Below are positions 4,317-56,220 of a DNA stretch of 64,000 bases, piece after piece; position 1 is the stretch's first letter; each line of letters begins with the position of its first letter. The DNA lies in the NCBI GenBank assembly GCA_964643995.1, contig CAZXUJ010000001.1, positions 337,492 through 401,491 on the forward strand, read 5' to 3'. The translations under genes and the position numbers were made by a program. The stretch is from an uncultured Candidatus Saccharibacteria bacterium. Lineage in GTDB: Bacteria; Patescibacteriota; WWE3; UBA101185; UBA10185. The notes under the pieces are model-generated. The model was not told the origin of the DNA. It was given only the letters and a program-made list of their open reading frames with translations, and made no database searches.

Positions 4317-5042
4317 ATGTATAAAAGAATCTTTGAAGGAAAAAATACAGCAATCTTTGACCTCGATGGTACAGTAATAGATTCTGAGTACGCTTGGTAC
4401 AAAGCTTTTGAGACTGTTTTGAAAACAGCAGCTCCTGACGCACTTATAGATGCAAAAAATATCATGTTAACTTCTGGAGTACCTATCATGGATAAATGGT
4501 TTTCTTTGATGTCATCCGGAATTGTAAGCGGTAGCAATAATGCAAAGACATTGACCGAAACAACTATAACAGAGTATCTGAAACTTCTCCAGCTAGGTGC
4601 AATACAAATTAGAGAAGGTTTCTGGGAACTCGCCGCGGAATTAAAACTACTAAAAGACTTCAGACTAGCACTCGTAACAAACACCTCAAGAAATGTAGTA
4701 GATCTAGTTTCTAAAAACCTATCCTTTGGAGCAACATTTGACTTAATCATATGTGGAGACGAAATCTCAAAACCAAAACCCAATCCTGAAATATATCTCA
4801 AAGCCCTAAAAGTACTCAATATCAGAGCGAAAGATGCTTTAGCCTTTGAGGATTCTGTAACCGGCGTTACCGCTGCTACAAAAGCTGGTATTGATACAGT
4901 GGTTATATGGGATGGACGTATTCACGAACAGGACTACCCTATGGAAGTGTTGGGATACGTAGCAGACTTCACCCCATTCCCCGGTAATCTTGATAAAACT
5001 ATAAAAGATATAATAAAGGACTACGCACAGAGCAAAAGTTAA
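4317..5042 (+). CDS. HAD-superfamily hydrolase (beta-phosphoglucomutase-like subfamily)
   Basis: FDLDGTVIDSE motif I, then a conserved T/S and K...D at appropriate spacing. Confidence 0.75.
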   Translation: MYKRIFEGKNTAIFDLDGTVIDSEYAWYKAFETVLKTAAPDALIDAKNIMLTSGVPIMDKWFSLMSSGIVSGSNNAKTLTETTITEYLKLLQLGAIQIREGFWELAAELKLLKDFRLALVTNTSRNVVDLVSKNLSFGATFDLIICGDEISKPKPNPEIYLKALKVLNIRAKDALAFEDSVTGVTAATKAGIDTVVIWDGRIHEQDYPMEVLGYVADFTPFPGNLDKTIKDIIKDYAQSKS

Positions 5043-18791: not shown

Positions 18792-19768
18792 TGTCAGAAA
18801 ATAAACACAGAAAACTAGTCTCTATTGTACTTCCTTGTTATAACGAGGAAAAAAACATAAACAGGATGTTTGATCAGATAGCGGATGTTATGAAAAATCA
18901 TGCCTACGATTACGAAATCATTGCAGTAAACGACGGTAGTAAGGACAACACATGGAATGTTATCAGTGAGTATTCAGCAAAAGATTCAAAAATAGTAGGT
19001 ATAAATCTGATGGGAAATTTTGGACAGAGCAGTGCATACATGGCTGGATTTGATAATGCCTCGGGTGACTATGTTATAACCTTTAATGCTGATTTAGAGC
19101 TTCCAACAGAAAGTTTGATCCAGGTAATAAATTACCTGGATCAAGGGTATGATTTTGTAAACGCACATAGGACAGATCGATGGAGTGCGGAAAAAGCTGC
19201 AAGACAAGTGAAAAGCGGTTATGCCAATAAAATAATTACTGCTATATCGGGAATCGATATGAAAGATCGAGGGTCAGGGCTCAAAGGTTACAAAAAATAC
19301 CTTTTACAAAATCTTAGATTGTACGGAGAAATGCACCGATTTATACCCGATTATCTCTCGGTGTATAGACCAAAAATGATCGAGTTCGAAGTTAAGTTCA
19401 AAGATCGTGACTACGGAGAATCTGCATATAAAGGCAACAAGAGAACCATTAAAGTTTTACTAGACTTGATAACATTGGCATTTATGCTTTCATTTGCACA
19501 TAAGCCATTCAAAATGATGCCAGGGAGGCTTTTTAGTTTTACGGGGGCTTTAATCTCTGGAGCCGGATTTTTAGGACTAGGGTACCTTACTATATTGAAG
19601 TTGATGGGAGAAAGTATCGGGGGGAGACCTTTGTTGATACTCTCGGCGCTGTTGGTAATAGTCGGTATTCAGTCAGTAATGATGGGCTTAATTGGCGAAC
19701 TTATGATGAGAACTTACTTTGAAGCATCCGGTAGAAAAACTTACGCAATAAGAGAAAAAACCAACTAA
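18791..19768 (+). CDS. GT2 polyprenyl-phosphate glycosyltransferase (GtrB/DPM1-like) with C-terminal TM helices
   Basis: LVSIVLPCYNEEKNI, a DGS.D motif (NDGSKDNT), and two C-terminal hydrophobic helices. Start overlaps the epimerase stop (ATGT...). Confidence 0.7.
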   Translation: MSENKHRKLVSIVLPCYNEEKNINRMFDQIADVMKNHAYDYEIIAVNDGSKDNTWNVISEYSAKDSKIVGINLMGNFGQSSAYMAGFDNASGDYVITFNADLELPTESLIQVINYLDQGYDFVNAHRTDRWSAEKAARQVKSGYANKIITAISGIDMKDRGSGLKGYKKYLLQNLRLYGEMHRFIPDYLSVYRPKMIEFEVKFKDRDYGESAYKGNKRTIKVLLDLITLAFMLSFAHKPFKMMPGRLFSFTGALISGAGFLGLGYLTILKLMGESIGGRPLLILSALLVIVGIQSVMMGLIGELMMRTYFEASGRKTYAIREKTN

Positions 19769-40710: not shown

Positions 40711-42006
40711 ATGACTAAAGCAAAAGAAGAATTAAAATACTGTCTTTATGCTCGCAAAAGTTCGGAATCAGATGAACGGCAAGCACGTTCAATAGAATCT
40801 CAAATTAATGAAATGCAGGAACAAGCAAAGAAAGAAGGATTGAATATCGTAGAAGTTAAAAAAGAGTCGCACAGTGCAAAGATATCGGGGACACGACCTG
40901 TATTCTTGGAGATACTTAAAGAAATTAATTTAGAAAAATACAATGGGATTTTAGCTTGGTCACCAGACCGATTGAGTAGAAATGCAGGAGACTTAGGAAG
41001 TTTAGTAGATTTGATGGATAGAAAGAAACTTGTTCATATTAAAACTTATTCTCAATCTTTTACCAACAACCCAAACGAAAAGTTTTTACTTATGATTTTA
41101 TGTTCCCAAGCAAAGCTAGAGAATGACAACAGATCGCTACATGTTCAAAGAGGTATTAGAAACAAATGTGAAATGGGTTGGAGACCTTGCCCTGCACCTA
41201 TTGGCTATATTAATTACTCCCATGAAGGCACTAAAAAAGTGATGCTTGATAAAGAAGCAGCTCCCTATGTAAAGGAACTGTTTGAACTTGTAGCCCATGC
41301 AAACTATAGCGGAAGAGATTTAAGAGAACATCTAAAACAAGATAAAAATCTCCGACGACTAACTAACAAGAAAATATCTTTAAGTATGATTTATACAATA
41401 TTGAAAACGCCTTTTTATTACGGTGAATTCGAATATCCACAAGGAAGTGGGAAATGGTACAAAGGTGCTCACGAACCCATAATTGAAAAGTGGCTATTTG
41501 ATAAAGTGCAAAGGAAATTAGTCACTTCAAAAAAATCGAAATGGGGTTCAACTTTCTTTTTATTTAAGCATGTATTCAAGTGTGCTTATTGTGGAGCAAA
41601 CTTTGTTGGTGAAGAAAAACATAAAATGCTCAAAGGTGGAAAGAAAAGGACATATACATATTATCGCTGTTCCAGGCAAGTGGATCCGAACTGTGAGGAA
41701 CCGTATGTAAATGAAAATGAATTAATTGGTGAGTTAATCAATTATGTGGGATTGATAGAAAATAAGAGAGACTCAAACCTACATCTAAACAGTAAAATCA
41801 GAGGCAGAATGGATAAATTTACCAAGTTAAGAATGTCTTTACTTGAAGGAAAGAATATAAAAGTCCACGAAAAAGTAACATTTACGGAGTATTTCAAATA
41901 CATTATTTATAATGGAACTAAAGAAGAAAAACAGGAAGCAATTGAAACACTGAAACTACCGTTATTCATTCACAATAAGACTGTTTACACACATCCGTTA
42001 GGATAA
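40711..42006 (+). CDS. Large serine recombinase (resolvase/invertase catalytic domain + recombinase domain + zinc ribbon)
   Basis: N-terminal YARKSSESDERQARSIESQ with a catalytic Ser context and ...SPDRLSRN. A C-terminal Cys cluster (CAYCG ... CSRQVDPNC) forms a zinc-ribbon-like element. 431 aa. Confidence 0.8.
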   Translation: MTKAKEELKYCLYARKSSESDERQARSIESQINEMQEQAKKEGLNIVEVKKESHSAKISGTRPVFLEILKEINLEKYNGILAWSPDRLSRNAGDLGSLVDLMDRKKLVHIKTYSQSFTNNPNEKFLLMILCSQAKLENDNRSLHVQRGIRNKCEMGWRPCPAPIGYINYSHEGTKKVMLDKEAAPYVKELFELVAHANYSGRDLREHLKQDKNLRRLTNKKISLSMIYTILKTPFYYGEFEYPQGSGKWYKGAHEPIIEKWLFDKVQRKLVTSKKSKWGSTFFLFKHVFKCAYCGANFVGEEKHKMLKGGKKRTYTYYRCSRQVDPNCEEPYVNENELIGELINYVGLIENKRDSNLHLNSKIRGRMDKFTKLRMSLLEGKNIKVHEKVTFTEYFKYIIYNGTKEEKQEAIETLKLPLFIHNKTVYTHPLG

Positions 42007-43125: not shown

Positions 43126-43202
43126 TGGTCGGGGTGACAGGACTCGAACCTGCGACCTCACGCACCCCATGCGTGCGCGCTAGCCAACTGCGCCACACCC
43201 CG
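43126..43202 (-). tRNA. tRNA-Pro (anticodon GGG)
   Basis: Minus-strand cloverleaf: acceptor CGGGGUG/CACCCCG, D-stem GCGC/GCGC, anticodon stem CACGC/GCGUG with loop AUGGGGU, T-loop UUCGAGU, discriminator A, and encoded CCA. Confidence 0.85.
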
Positions 43203-43258
43203 ACGTATTCGGCGGGATGGTAGTGATGTACTTATCACGTCACACCCCGACGTATTCG
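43194..43258. repeat. Direct repeat (18 bp x2) comprising the tRNA-Pro 5' end plus flank, bracketing a tRNA-5'-half-like hairpin mini-element
   Basis: CACACCCCGACGTATTCG occurs at 43194-43211 and again at 43241-43258. Between the copies the minus strand reads GUCGGGGUGUGACGUGAUAAGUACAUCACUACCAUCCC. Confidence 0.6.
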
Positions 43259-43332
43259 AACAGGTGAATAATACCATTTACATGACATCGCCAACCATAT
43301 ATGAAAAAATTAATGTATAGGAGGTGATAATA

Positions 43333-43779
43333 ATGGACGAAAATATACAGCAAACAACAACACCAGCTGCGCCTAAAGTTGAAATAATGTATGCAACTTT
43401 CATGCAAAGATTTCTAGCAGTATTGATTGATGCAGTACTTGTAGGATTAGTTGTTGGTGTCAGTGGAATTATTCTAAACCCAATATTTGGGGGCGAGGAT
43501 GGTATGTTTTACAACCCTCTTGGAATAGTGCTTGGACTTGGGTATGCGATATTCATGCTAACACAGTATGGGGCGACACTTGGAAAAAAGGCACTTGGCA
43601 TAAAGGTTGTTAAACAAGAAGTTGGCGAAAATCTTAATCCCGTAGACGCATTCTTGAGAGAGGTGGTCGGTAAGTGTTTATCGAGCTTTTTCTTGATAGG
43701 ATATCTTTGGATGCTTTGGGACCCAAACAAGCAGACATGGCATGACAAGATAGCAAAGAGTTTAGTTGTGAAAGCTTAA
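43333..43779 (+). CDS. RDD family membrane protein
   Basis: AGGAGGTGA RBS then ATG. RFLAVLIDAVLVGLVVG followed by hydrophobic helices is typical of the RDD domain. Confidence 0.6.
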   Translation: MDENIQQTTTPAAPKVEIMYATFMQRFLAVLIDAVLVGLVVGVSGIILNPIFGGEDGMFYNPLGIVLGLGYAIFMLTQYGATLGKKALGIKVVKQEVGENLNPVDAFLREVVGKCLSSFFLIGYLWMLWDPNKQTWHDKIAKSLVVKA

Positions 43780-44474
43780 GGTGTTTGTAAAACTACTGGA
43801 GGACGTTTAGTAAGCTTTAGATGGAATAAAGGTCTTTCCTGCCCAAAGCTAAGTTTTTTACTCCAAGTTGAATCGAAATTTTTTAAAGTCTCTTTTTGTA
43901 GAGGGCTTATGGTTACCTCCTGAAAACCTACATTCAGAAAATTTGGGACGACGTTAGCCTTAACATACTCTAGACTCAAATTTTCCAAACCCAATCTGTC
44001 AACTTCGGTTGGTTCTGTTTCCTGCGCATAACCAAACAATATTTCTAGCTCGCCATTCTCTTTCAGTAAGTCATACAACTTTTTTGGTGCCTCAGAATCA
44101 GGCAACACTATAGAACTAAGCAGAGAACCCCAAGGCAATATAACCGTTACTTTGGTGGCGAGACCATAGAGCTCCTCAGGCAATAGCTCGATAGAACCTA
44201 AAACAAATAAACAATTATTAACTTTTGTTTTAACAGCTTTTTTGGAATATTTTTCTAGTTGTGCCTGGCTCGGATCTACACCAATAAAAAGGCCATCTTG
44301 GGTTTTGATAGCATTCTTAAAAACAAAACGACCATCACCGGTACCAATATCAATATGGACAGTATTAAATTTTTGGGTTAACTCGGCGAGATCGAGCCTT
44401 GTGATATCGCGAGTTGAACTACCTAGAATCAGTCGCATTGTTGTTATTATAGCCTTTTCAGCTAAAATAATCAT
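43776..44474 (-). CDS. Class I SAM-dependent methyltransferase, NpmA/KamB (16S rRNA m1A1408) family-like
   Basis: VHIDIGTGDGRFVFKNAI...FIGVDP, ILPWGSLL and WSKKLSFGQERPLFHL parallel the HIDLGTGDG / FPWGTLL / WAKRL.FGR blocks recalled for Kmr-family aminoglycoside-resistance methyltransferases. Comparison is from memory only. Confidence 0.5.
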   Translation of the reverse strand: MIILAEKAIITTMRLILGSSTRDITRLDLAELTQKFNTVHIDIGTGDGRFVFKNAIKTQDGLFIGVDPSQAQLEKYSKKAVKTKVNNCLFVLGSIELLPEELYGLATKVTVILPWGSLLSSIVLPDSEAPKKLYDLLKENGELEILFGYAQETEPTEVDRLGLENLSLEYVKANVVPNFLNVGFQEVTISPLQKETLKNFDSTWSKKLSFGQERPLFHLKLTKRPPVVLQTP

Positions 44475-51177: not shown

Positions 51178-51694
51178 CGAAATTCATTAGGGCTTCTTTT
51201 GAAGTTGCGGCAAGCTCGCCTCGAGCAGCCATCTCCTTGATCTCATCCCTTGTACACCACAATGACGTCGTATGTTCAGGTGAATGACTGACTTCGTAAC
51301 CGTCAGTTAGAGCTATTTGAAGATAAGTGTTGGCGGGTACGCCATCATACTTCCCACCCTTCATAACACGGGTACTTTGCATATCTAGCTGATCTGGGAG
51401 AGTTATTTGTAACCCTGTTTCCTCAGCTACTTCACGAACTATACTTTCTGCGACAGTCTCACCGGGGTCAATTTTTCCTCCTGGGAGTTCAAACTTACCG
51501 GCATCAAATGAACCTTCTGAACGCTGTAATAATAGGGCACATGTTTGGCCATTTACTTCACTTAAGATGATAGCGCGCGCCATGTTAAGTTCTTTTGGGG
51601 TTTCAACTGATGGTATTGTGTTTGGAGACACAAAAGCGACTTCTGGTAAGGGAGACACAATTTCATGTGTTGCTGATTCTGTTCTTGGTGCCAT
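51167..51694 (-). CDS. NUDIX hydrolase
   Basis: Nudix box GGKIDPGETVAESIVREVAEETGL. Confidence 0.7.
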   Translation of the reverse strand: MAPRTESATHEIVSPLPEVAFVSPNTIPSVETPKELNMARAIILSEVNGQTCALLLQRSEGSFDAGKFELPGGKIDPGETVAESIVREVAEETGLQITLPDQLDMQSTRVMKGGKYDGVPANTYLQIALTDGYEVSHSPEHTTSLWCTRDEIKEMAARGELAATSKEALMNFVNL

Positions 51695-51772
51695 TAATAA
51701 ATAATGCTATATATAATAAAAAATGTCTACAAAATTGACACTATTTGGGAGCAGGAATATAACTAAGTGAAT

Positions 51773-51846
51773 GTCGGGGTGTGACGTGATGAGTACATCA
51801 CTACCACCCCTCCTTCGTCGGGGTGTGACGCTGACGCTACCACCCC
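51773..51846 (+). repeat. Two tandem tRNA-5'-half-like mini-elements upstream of tRNA-Pro(CGG)
   Basis: GTCGGGGTGTGACGTGATGAGTACATCACTACCACCCC at 51773-51810 and GTCGGGGTGTGACGCTGACGCTACCACCCC at 51817-51846. Each begins like the tRNA-Pro acceptor/D region and ends CACCCC. The first copy is near-identical to the element upstream of tRNA-Pro(GGG) at about 43212-43255 (minus strand). Confidence 0.6.
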
Positions 51847-51855
51847 TCATTTCTT

Positions 51856-51931
51856 CGGGGTGTAGCTCAGTTGGTAGAGTGCACGATTCGGGTTCGTGAG
51901 GCCGAGCGTTCGAGTCGCTCCACCCCGACCA
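51856..51931 (+). tRNA. tRNA-Pro (anticodon CGG)
   Basis: Acceptor CGGGGUG/CACCCCG, D-arm GCUC-AGUUGGUA-GAGU, anticodon stem CACGA/UCGUG with loop UUCGGGU, T-arm GAGCG-UUCGAGU-CGCUC, discriminator A, CCA encoded. Confidence 0.85.
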
Positions 51932-51992
51932 GTAAACTAATTTCATAGTGTTACATATTGCAATATATATTGGTGTTTAGTAATGTTTAGAA

Positions 51993-54540: not shown

Positions 54541-56220
54541 ATGAGATACTCCAAACTTTTCGGCAAAACAGTCAAACAAGCAAAAAAAGACATGTCTGCA
54601 ACTTCACACAAGTTGTTGTATCAAGGTGGATTTATAAGAGAAAGTGTTGCCGGCAGATATTACATGCTGCCTCTCGGAATGCGAGTGCGCAATAAAATTA
54701 TTGGGATTATACGTGAAGAAATGGATAAAACTGGCGCACAAGAAATGTTATCCCCAGTACTCCACCCTCTTGAATTATGGAAAGAAACCAATCGAACTAA
54801 TACAGCAGGCTTTGAGCTCATGGTTGTAGCTGACAGGCGCGGTGGTGAATTTGCCTTAGGCGGAACAGGAGAGGAAATGTTCGTTGATGCAGTACGCGGA
54901 TTTACACTGTCTTATAAGGATCTTCCTATAAATATCTACCAGGTATCTTCAAAGTTTCGTGATGAGATTAGAGTCAAGGGCGGTTTGATGAGAACACGTG
55001 AATTTACCATGAAAGATGCTTATTCCTTTCACACTGACGAGGAAGAATTCAAAACAGAGTATGCCGTAATGGCTAGCACTTACACCCAAATTTTTAAAAG
55101 ATTAGGACTCGCTACAACTATGGTTCTTGCAGACAATGGCTACATCGGAGGCGAATACTGTCATGAGTTTGTAGTTGAGAATGATGCAGGGGAAAGCAGA
55201 TATTTTGTAAGTGAGGATGGTAAATATATTGCACATGAAGATGTCGCCGAATTTATACGTAATGAAGTAAATGTTGATGATGAGATTTTAGACTTAGAGA
55301 CTATTGAGCAACCTGAATGGGTTCAAACTATGGAGCATAACGAAAAGCATTACAAACTACCTGCGAGCAGATTTTTAAAGAATGTTGTTTATAAAAACCG
55401 AGTAACAAACGAGATAATTATTGCCGTGATAAGAGGCGACCTTGAGATCAACAAAACAAAACTTGAGCATGTTCTTGATGCAGTAGGACAGCTCGATGAC
55501 GCTACGGACGAAGACCTACAAAAACTAGATACAAAAACAGGTTATGTTCATTCATGGGGGCATACTGCTAGATATATCGGAGATGTTTCATTAAAGACAG
55601 TGAAAAACTTTATTGGGGGACAAAAAGAAGAAAAAACCGACACTCGAAACGTTAACTATGGAAGAGATTTTTCATGTGAGATTTTAGCAGATATTGCCTT
55701 GGCAAAAGACGGTTTTACTGCACCAAACGGCAGCAAACTGATCGAGAAAAAGGGTATTGAGGTCGGAAATATTTTCCAGCTTGGACTTCATTACTCAACA
55801 AAAATGGCAAATGCTGTCTTCACTTCTCAAGAAGGCACAGAAGTCCCTTACTATATGGGTTGTTACGGAATCGGTATCGAACGAACACTAGCAACAATAG
55901 TTGAAAATCATAGTGATGAGCGAGGGATAATTTGGCCTGAAAACGTAGCACCGTTTAAAGTGCACTTAATTGGACTTAATCTTGAAGATGAGCAAATCCG
56001 TAGCAAGGCCGAAGAAATATATAACCAACTTACCAAACAAGGCGTAGAAGTGTTGTTTGATGACCGCTTTGAAAGTTCAGCAGGTGAAAAGTTTGCGGAT
56101 GCTGATCTTATCGGATGTCCTTATAGAGTGGTGGTCTCAAAAAAAACAGGAGATCAAGTCGAAGTTAAAAAACGAAATGAAAAAGAAGCTAAATTAGTAG
56201 ACCTAGCCAATATCTTCTAG
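54541..56220 (+). CDS. proS: Prolyl-tRNA synthetase (bacterial type with insertion domain)
   Basis: N-terminal KLLYQGGFIRESVAGRYYMLPLGMRV..., class II motifs (FRDEIRVKGGLMRTREFTMKDAYSF), and a C-terminal anticodon-binding domain. Confidence 0.85.
   Translation: MRYSKLFGKTVKQAKKDMSATSHKLLYQGGFIRESVAGRYYMLPLGMRVRNKIIGIIREEMDKTGAQEMLSPVLHPLELWKETNRTNTAGFELMVVADRRGGEFALGGTGEEMFVDAVRGFTLSYKDLPINIYQVSSKFRDEIRVKGGLMRTREFTMKDAYSFHTDEEEFKTEYAVMASTYTQIFKRLGLATTMVLADNGYIGGEYCHEFVVENDAGESRYFVSEDGKYIAHEDVAEFIRNEVNVDDEILDLETIEQPEWVQTMEHNEKHYKLPASRFLKNVVYKNRVTNEIIIAVIRGDLEINKTKLEHVLDAVGQLDDATDEDLQKLDTKTGYVHSWGHTARYIGDVSLKTVKNFIGGQKEEKTDTRNVNYGRDFSCEILADIALAKDGFTAPNGSKLIEKKGIEVGNIFQLGLHYSTKMANAVFTSQEGTEVPYYMGCYGIGIERTLATIVENHSDERGIIWPENVAPFKVHLIGLNLEDEQIRSKAEEIYNQLTKQGVEVLFDDRFESSAGEKFADADLIGCPYRVVVSKKTGDQVEVKKRNEKEAKLVDLANIF

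Follow-up and report, generated by a model that had tools for sequence, protein, structure and literature searches.

We analyzed a 64,000-nucleotide (nt) stretch of DNA (hereafter the window) from an uncultured Candidatus Saccharibacteria bacterium (contig CAZXUJ010000001.1, positions 337,492 to 401,491 of the forward strand), with a focus on a small hairpin element that lies in front of two proline tRNA genes and itself begins like the tRNA. Judging by homologues of the RDD protein and of other encoded proteins, the window belongs to candidate division WWE3 (Patescibacteria). Related and metagenomic loci used for comparison carry L numbers below. On the sequences compared, the element is best explained as a quasi-palindromic insert that is specific to this lineage and lies in the probably transcribed 5′ leader of pre-tRNA-Pro. 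The following features were found at tRNA-Pro(GGG).

43126..43202 (−): tRNA-Pro(GGG), detected by ARAGORN; Rfam tRNA score of 60.4 bits; CCA encoded; acceptor stem CGGGGUG/CACCCCG
43203..43212 (−): linker CCGAAUACGU from unit E1 to tRNA +1, predicted to be single-stranded in the fold
43213..43249 (−): unit E1, a 37-nt quasi-palindrome (sequence, fold and homologue pairing)
43249..43234 (−): 5′ arm of E1, CGGGGUGUGACGUGAU, which is tRNA nt 1-12 with one change followed by 4 nt more
43233..43228 (−): 6-nt loop of E1, AAGUAC
43227..43213 (−): 3′ arm of E1, AUCACUACCAUCCCG
43250..43258 (−): distal leader copy CGAAUACGU directly 5′ of E1, from the repeat search
43191..43211: copy 1 of a direct repeat (21 nt, of which 18 exact), covering the 9-nt leader and tRNA nt 1-12
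43238..43258: copy 2 of the direct repeat, 95% identical to copy 1 and 47 bp away
43268..43276 (−): putative extended −10-like box TGGTATTAT, 18 nt upstream of E1, read from the sequence

The leader of tRNA-Pro(CGG), on the opposite strand, holds two further units.

51735..51763 (+): promoter-like TTGACA-17 nt-TATAAC, 11 nt upstream of E2, read from the sequence
51775..51811 (+): unit E2, CGGGGUGUGACGUGAUGAGUACAUCACUACCACCCCU, an E1-type hairpin with 3′ arm CACCCC; free energy (ΔG) −19.1, z −3.0
51812..51818 (+): linker CCUUCGU from E2 to E3
51819..51847 (+): unit E3, CGGGGUGUGACGCUGACGCUACCACCCCU, short type, inner stem of 2 bp, UGAC loop; ΔG −12.9, z −2.2
51848..51855 (+): linker CAUUUCUU before tRNA +1
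51856..51931 (+): tRNA-Pro(CGG), detected by ARAGORN; Rfam score of 64.2 bits
63542-63630: tRNA-Ser(GCU), the third and last ARAGORN tRNA of the window

The initial annotation of this DNA had reported an 18-bp direct repeat at tRNA-Pro(GGG) with its copies 47 bp apart, and this was confirmed: CACACCCCGACGTATTCG occurs exactly twice in the window (43194-43211 and 43241-43258), with none expected from 100 shuffles. The exact repeat lengthens to 21 nt with one mismatch and, when read in the tRNA orientation, consists of the 9-nt leader CGAAUACGU followed by tRNA positions 1-12 with G10 changed to A. The last 9 nt of the linker CCGAAUACGU are the proximal copy of this duplicated leader. The sequence between the copies had been described as an inner GUGAU/AUCAC hairpin with a CCAUCCC end; this part holds, but the pairing of CAUCCCG with the CGGGGUG copy was overlooked, by which all 37 nt of E1 form one stem-loop (ΔG −17.8 kcal/mol, z −2.4). 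In the basal helix of E1-E3, CGGGGUG, copied from the 5′ acceptor strand of the tRNA, pairs with a downstream complement, CAYCCCK. The near-identical inverted element noted earlier upstream of tRNA-Pro(CGG) is indeed present as E2. Its core shares 22/22 specified bases with that of E1, and the two units, inverted relative to each other and 8.5 kb apart, are 92% identical, whereas about 20 positions differ between their tRNAs. The shorter unit E3 had been missed; the CGG leader holds two units, not one. The motif GTCGGGGTGTGACG matches four times in the window, versus 0.07 expected, and no unit comparable to E1-E3 was found at tRNA-Ser(GCU). A 23-nt AT-rich imperfect inverted repeat (51692-51714 and 51963-51985, 74% complementary) brackets the tRNA-Pro(CGG) locus and may be due to chance.

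A search with the RDD gene identified four syntenic genomes that carry the element. E1 is not an assembly artefact, since the independent sample L002 has the same structure with one substitution. In L003 the GUGAU/AUCAC hairpin is replaced by GCGAU/AUCGC and the 3′ arm reads CACCUCU, and in L004 the sole unit at the GGG locus is of the short E3 type. These element-bearing relatives stand at the genus level (NpmA, ABC and leucyl-tRNA synthetase (LeuRS) proteins 87-93% identical). More distant WWE3 loci (L176, L178-183) keep the synteny of RDD and tRNA-Pro(GGG) and have no unit. Across eight family members (alignment A2), 93% of the cells are paired, compared with 40-70% in slid controls. One pair has changed on both sides (U-A in three, C-G in four), another alternates between G-C and G-U, and C/U wobble changes are restricted to the 3′ arm. 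The hairpin, whose conservation the initial annotation had singled out for checking, is thus kept both in L002-L004 and in the eight-homologue set. On these sequences support for a kept structure is good; support from covariation is thin, as only a few closely related sequences were compared. No known RNA family matches: a search of Rfam 15 returned only the tRNAs above the gathering score, with the best permissive hits at 17 bits against cut-offs of 32-72, and this candidate was rejected. An independent short-read Logan assembly of the same genome (L001) has a contig that ends inside tRNA-Pro(GGG), at the repeat, and such leaders may therefore fragment assemblies.

The units occupy a constant place at both loci, each lying between a promoter-like site and the tRNA. 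The box TGGTATTAT is kept in L002-L004, and the TTGACA-17-TATAAC site of the CGG locus is conserved in the sister-species locus L188. A promoter scanner scored neither site as a match, the latter being rejected only for the C at its final −10 base. If these promoter readings are right, the units would form the 5′ part of the primary transcript, and the earlier suggestion of a transcribed tRNA-like leader fits both this placement and the conservation of the hairpin in relatives. RNase P requires a single-stranded proximal leader (PMC7897497); each unit is followed by 7-10 unpaired nt up to the next RNase P-type site, which by the predicted folds would leave the proximal leader accessible to the enzyme. 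Zero terminator-like sites were found in a scan of both loci, where the tails read CCGAAUACGU, CCUUCGU and CAUUUCUU; with no site combining a GC-rich stem and a U run, an intrinsic terminator or attenuator is not supported.

Several observations bear on how the units arose. In the element-free WWE3 relatives a −10 box (TGGTAAAAT or TGGTAGAAT) is located 13 nt upstream of tRNA +1, and the distance from box to copy is 12 nt in L003 and 18 nt in the window. From the near-equal spacing in L003, the copy appears to hold the original place of the tRNA start, the true tRNA having been pushed downstream. The sister species (L003 genome; CGG locus in L187-L192; LeuRS 90% identical) has a CGG leader with an E2-like start, which differs at one position from the first 31 nt of E2, and an E3-like end; the flanking intergenic DNA is also about 75-80% conserved. 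In these loci (e.g. L187 5812-5925, minus strand), E2 and E3 have been remodelled into a nested palindrome of about 100 nt (ΔG −53.5 kcal/mol, z −7.9), which is closed by CGGGGUG/CAUCCCG and whose gained segments are inverted copies of their neighbours with perfect pairing. The contexts of L118 and L139 are identical except for one additional unit in L118, and long inverted copies of tRNA nt 1-24 are present in L142, L171 and L124. Tandem copies without any inverted arm also exist (L080, with a 28-nt unit twice, L070 and L091); therefore, duplication at the tRNA start is recurrent. Template switching creates hairpins, alters both arms at once and gives apparent compensatory changes (PMC8794818). 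Its diagnostic combination, an inserted reverse complement of a neighbour together with a direct re-copy, is found in the arms of E1 and in the 18/21-nt repeat. Taken together, the direct repeat round an inverted copy, the promoter distance, the nested additions of the sister species, the unit turnover between L118 and L139 and the bare tandem copies carry the signature of template switching.

The units also appear to move between loci. The GGG-locus unit of L003 bears the linker CUCCUUCGU found after E2, and the E2-E3 linker CCUUCGU precedes tRNA-Pro(GGG) in the same genome. The window has the short unit type at its CGG locus and L004 has it at its GGG locus, so types A and B swap loci between genomes. 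Given these shared linkers and type swaps, along with the near identity of E1 and E2, exchange of units between the tRNA-Pro loci is likely. Only in this sense does the previously proposed recombination event survive. The suggested inversion of the 43.2-51.9 kb segment was not seen: the gene orders ABC-TruB-LeuRS-ZIP-MsrA-NUDIX-tRNA(CGG) and tRNA(GGG)-RDD-NpmA-ABC are collinear in all three relatives examined (L188, L003 and L004).

One neighbouring gene brings DNA-level explanations into play.

40711-42006 (+): large serine recombinase with Resolvase, Recombinase and Zn-ribbon domains, 1.1 kb from the 3′ end of tRNA-Pro(GGG)

Serine recombinases act on imperfect palindromes of about 40 bp. 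The units could accordingly be read as DNA recombination sites, either att or crossover sites of this enzyme or substrates for inverting the 8.5-kb E1-E2 segment, and the inverted arrangement and high identity of E1 and E2 would suit such a role, as would the recombinase homologues that adjoin tRNA-Pro on its 3′ side in L131, L065 and L159. We regard this as very unlikely, because the recombinase lies 3′ of the tRNA, units are present in L004 and L187-192 with no recombinase nearby, and L159 has a recombinase and no unit; on these three grounds E1 was rejected as a serine-recombinase att site. In addition, no tRNA 3′ remnant is present elsewhere in the 64-kb window, including any 3′-end copy that could delimit an island on its distal side, L003/L188 and L004 keep the gene order over the 43.2-51.9 kb segment, and neither the tandem E2-E3 arrangement nor the units of other phyla fit.

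In L004, the orthologue of window positions 18989-19768 is only about 4 kb away from the tRNA and the intervening genes are unrelated, which makes some 23 kb of the window at the 3′ side of tRNA-Pro(GGG) (about 19.8-43.1 kb) look like a variable island. L004 also repeats 16 nt of the tRNA-Pro(GGG) 3′ end, CCTGTCACCCCGACCA, at about 4660-4675, 130 bp downstream of the complete gene; this is a classical att-type remnant, distinct from the 5′ units. Fragments of tRNA genes serve as attL/attR of integrating elements (PMC9897764; work cited there: Reiter 1989, Williams 2002). The island, this true 3′-end fragment and the fact that direct repeats of part of a tRNA gene are a hallmark of integrated elements (PMC9897764) speak for a further alternative, in which the unit was left behind by a tyrosine-integrase element or is itself a miniature transposable element whose target duplication is the 18-bp repeat. 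Such an origin seems extremely improbable. The repeats are separated by only 29 bp and comprise the 5′ end and leader, not the usual 3′ part, and terminal inverted repeats are absent. Within the 64 kb the core is confined to the two tRNA-Pro leaders and, in 194 loci, to tRNA-Pro leaders of this lineage, and no copy of the 29-bp insert was found at a site without a tRNA gene, which is unlike a dispersed miniature or repetitive extragenic palindromic (REP) element. A scan of 185,579 species genomes with TCGGGGTGNGNCGN{4,18}CTRCCAYCYC returned 56 matches, about the estimated chance rate, all of them in high-GC genomes outside the candidate phyla radiation (CPR) and none within it; in the form of this pattern, the element is thus missing from the species representatives. 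The control tRNAs from these chance-hit genomes (n=7) were too few for use. The initial annotation's fossil of an integration event fares no better, since the repeats lie 47 bp apart and enclose no coding sequence, the one recombinase gene is on the other (3′) side, and L004, which lacks recombinase and island, still has the element.

Metagenomes were scanned with a pattern of GGGGTG, 25-55 nt and a tRNA-Pro start, which returned 113 stretches; the scan is ascertained on the tRNA-Pro start, and frequencies and Pro-specificity are not estimable from it. Dozens of analogous units were identified upstream of tRNA-Pro in WWE3, Woesebacteria and Bacteroidales-like contigs. Many stretches exceed the pattern, with 1-3 tandem units that each open with 7-26 nt of the tRNA start followed by a stable hairpin, and the same last leader bases often precede each unit. 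The 57 unique copy-bearing tRNA-Pro units have a mean fold z of −2.34 (61% below −2), and in 44/57 the copy is paired inside its own unit, whereas the mean z is −0.09 for the 35 copy-free tRNA-Pro leaders that the scan also returned. This comparison of fold z-scores replaced a test for 7-nt complements to CGGGGUG (G-U allowed, versus shuffles), which was uninformative because the G-rich strand too easily finds C/U partners. The hairpins themselves vary: a WWE3 family (L117, L098) stacks the helix CGGGGUG/CACCCCG on AAGC-NNN-GCUU, a Woesebacteria family (L131) is a palindrome built on the D-loop, and the most abundant family, CCACGC-AAAG-CGUGG, belongs to Bacteroidales-like contigs with TAnnTTTG promoters and keeps 95% of its pairing with two compensatory pairs.

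The same design was detected at non-Pro tRNAs (Arg, Gly, Val and Leu) of other contigs. Their own first 9-21 nt are copied upstream and supplied with a complementary arm at tRNA-Arg (112) and tRNA-Gly (2558) of L089, at tRNA-Val (410) of L086 and at tRNA-Leu of L094 (2172) and L085 (4164). A hairpin module GGUAAGC-NNN-GCUUGGCC is shared by leaders of tRNA-Pro (L131, L142, L171), tRNA-Arg (L089) and tRNA-Leu (L085). The initial annotation had held that an element confined to two loci, without rearrangement in relatives, would imply plain leader duplication. This nearly matches the data, except that the duplication is direct and inverted at once and recurs in other lineages. A description of the phenomenon was not found in Rfam or in the literature searched (leader minihelices, partial tRNA duplications upstream, CPR tRNA leaders). 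The pattern is thus broader than this lineage and apparently undescribed, and it belongs with partial tRNA duplications and structured tRNA leaders.

Some units resemble remains of a second tRNA gene. Those of L066, L106 and L114 retain pieces of the D-arm and anticodon loop of their own tRNA, the leader is repeated ahead of both copies, and a tRNA-like 3′ strand is followed by CC (CAUCCCG-CC-GAAUACGU in E1, CACCCCU-CC in E2), possibly a remnant of ACCA. On such grounds a unit might be a decayed tandem tRNA-Pro gene whose interior was deleted, so that both acceptor strands and a spacer are left (a "top-half" pseudogene). This is improbable: the 3′ arm complements tRNA positions 8-24 in L124, L142 and L171, unlike a tRNA 3′ half, and the nested palindrome of L187 cannot come from deletion. 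The likeness of E1 and E2 in spite of their divergent tRNAs also argues against it, as does the lack of any ARAGORN or Rfam tRNA signal on the units (Rfam E<=10). Longer pseudo-tRNA-Pro copies lie 100-170 nt upstream of tRNA-Pro(CGG) in the Bacteroidales-like loci L064, L101 and L155. In these copies the 5′ strands of the D-stem and anticodon stem are each swapped for a local hairpin; one example, UCCCGAG-UAC-UCGGGA beside the anticodon loop UUCGGGA, resembles an inverted plus direct duplication.

A duplicated acceptor strand could interfere with the tRNA that it copies. For pre-tRNA-Pro(GGG), the fold that pairs the upstream copy to the tRNA 3′ strand and the native fold are iso-energetic (−57.3 versus −57.2), and for pre-tRNA-Pro(CGG) the swapped fold is the predicted optimum. 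According to these folds, the upstream copy is a real competitor for the 3′ acceptor strand, and therefore copies locked in their own hairpin should be the ones to survive. The same folds can be read in another way, with the unit as a cis-encoded minihelix that carries the tRNA-Pro acceptor helix, is freed by RNase P and acts as a decoy, recruiter, timer or conformational switch. Its partners might be RNase P itself, 3′ processing or CCA enzymes, or prolyl-tRNA synthetase (ProRS) and editing factors, and as a switch it would set the yield of mature tRNA-Pro by changing conformation. Because the −1 to −9 context is duplicated, RNase P would be expected under this proposal to cut 5′ of each CGGGGUG. 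Two features of an RNase P minihelix substrate, an acceptor-type helix of about 7 bp and a single-stranded 5′ leader, are found, with CGGGGUG paired to CAUCCCG or CACCCC in E1-E3 and their homologues (93% of cells paired). The helix uses the tRNA's own 5′ strand, and in some WWE3 units (L117) the 3′ strand CACCCCG is also identical and the acceptor helix is stacked directly on a 4-5-bp hairpin. The duplicated leader context includes U-1, and the iso-energetic alternative fold, the kept structure with wobble only in the 3′ arm and the one compensatory pair would fit as well.

Three further observations lend this proposal weight and count against a unit that is only a by-product of mutation. All eight family members share the internal-loop bases (G)AC/(C)UAC, which would fit a sequence-specific function. 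In WWE3-like loci, units occur at all three Pro isoacceptors somewhere and at 0/8 non-Pro tRNAs, a restriction that hints at something tRNA-Pro-specific. The units have also persisted through species-level divergence at two loci of a streamlined genome. On the other side, the units lack a 3′ NCCA and a T-loop consensus (their tails read CCG.., CCU.. and CAU.., with neither an RCCA nor an ACCA among them), the inner hairpins are unrelated between families, and the number and architecture of units shift between sister species. Some lineages (L080, L070, L091) have bare copies with no helix, close WWE3 relatives manage without the element, and template switching alone can imitate compensatory change (PMC8794818). 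A functional mimic is rather unlikely, and the decayed tandem gene ranks as less likely still. The more general claim seems doubtful to a greater degree than function at these loci: that leaders of tRNA-Pro and some other tRNAs in several phyla (WWE3, Woesebacteria, Bacteroidales-like) encode small RNAs of a hitherto unrecognised class, namely acceptor-mimic minihelices released by RNase P that regulate maturation or titrate an acceptor-stem-binding enzyme. If such a class were real, it would be a living example of minihelices arising from, and coexisting with, full tRNAs, and a functional unit would be a cis-encoded tRNA mimic of a new kind, with tRNA-Pro maturation as its target.

On balance, we favour, with some reserve, a fold-back duplication of the tRNA 5′ end that is tolerated, sequesters itself and is removed with the leader. 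We infer its origin from the anatomy of the units, and their transcription and removal from position. Template switching or fold-back during replication at the start of the tRNA gene would have copied the leader and the first ~9-16 nt of the tRNA, once inverted and once direct (DUP-INV-DUP). The old 5′ end would stay beside the promoter and become the 5′ arm of the hairpin, the inverted copy would become its 3′ arm, and a new leader with a new 5′ end would re-form the tRNA 37-47 nt downstream. Units could then multiply, vanish and swap between tRNA-Pro loci through the common CGGGGUGUG, a step that is partly shown, and could expand into nested palindromes. During transcription the stem-loop would keep the decoy 5′ strand off the tRNA 3′ acceptor strand, the 7-10-nt single-stranded linker would hold the RNase P site open, and RNase P would cut away the whole leader. 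The element is thus best explained as neither a gene nor an integration scar, and mainly as a mutational by-product filtered by structure. If the units are only by-products, the first bases of a tRNA gene would be a recurrent hotspot of fold-back and tandem duplication in reduced genomes, and these leaders would provide a clean natural case of template switching making structured RNA from nothing. For annotators, it would matter that such leaders may break assemblies and mimic tRNA starts.

Other genes near the two loci were also noted. A bacterial-type ProRS with an inserted editing domain is encoded at 54541-56220 (+), 2.6 kb from tRNA-Pro(CGG), and its neighbourhood is alike in L187. The region upstream of it was covered only by the window-wide motif search. 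On the other side of E1, an NpmA-family 16S rRNA (A1408) methyltransferase is located at 43776-44474 (−) and is 91-92% conserved in relatives; the NpmA type is known from aminoglycoside resistance. The adjacent RDD gene evolves fast (58-89%), and its recorded start is ATG 43333, not GTG.

REP and bacterial interspersed mosaic element (BIME)-type extragenic palindromes and the split-tRNA 5′ halves of Nanoarchaeum are two known arrangements with which the units can be compared. Like the former, a unit is a short GC-rich stem-loop in intergenic DNA, but it is not dispersed and is tied to its own tRNA. Like the latter, it places a separate tRNA 5′ part ahead of a stretch complementary to it, but here the complete tRNA exists as well and a partner 3′ half is missing. 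Among tRNA spacer RNAs, the 3′ETS-leuZ sponge is a functional example, and a structured flank could in the same way act after its release. Structure in the flank could also affect maturation of the pre-tRNA, as with the synthetic sequestor hairpins that gate RNase P (PMC7897497). In contrast to both systems, the unit hairpin leaves positions −1 to −7/−10 uncovered. Acceptor/T-arm minihelices are minimal substrates of RNase P, of the CCA-adding enzyme and of some synthetases. The units resemble them in having a 7-bp helix of tRNA acceptor sequence on or near a short hairpin, with a leader that carries U-1. They differ in being natural and in having no 3′ RCCA and no T-loop consensus, and the family of the window has a 2x2 internal loop (for background on minihelices, see PMC11221534). 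The known tRNA-fragment literature deals with att sites and CRISPR spacers (PMC9897764). As in att fragments, a partial copy of the tRNA gene stands as a direct repeat beside the intact gene; in contrast, the unit copies the 5′ end and leader at a distance of 37-47 bp, no mobile DNA separates the two, the copy folds into a hairpin, and relatives without the neighbouring island carry it too. The closest parallels to the favoured origin are quasipalindrome mutations made by template switching (PMC8794818; PMC7954356), in which an inverted copy also stands beside a re-duplicated direct copy, a hairpin is born in one step and both arms can be "corrected" together, and the nested palindromes of the sister species fit this pattern. 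Unlike in those cases, the events described here are clustered at the first bases of the tRNA gene, occur in several phyla and appear to persist in a transcribed leader.

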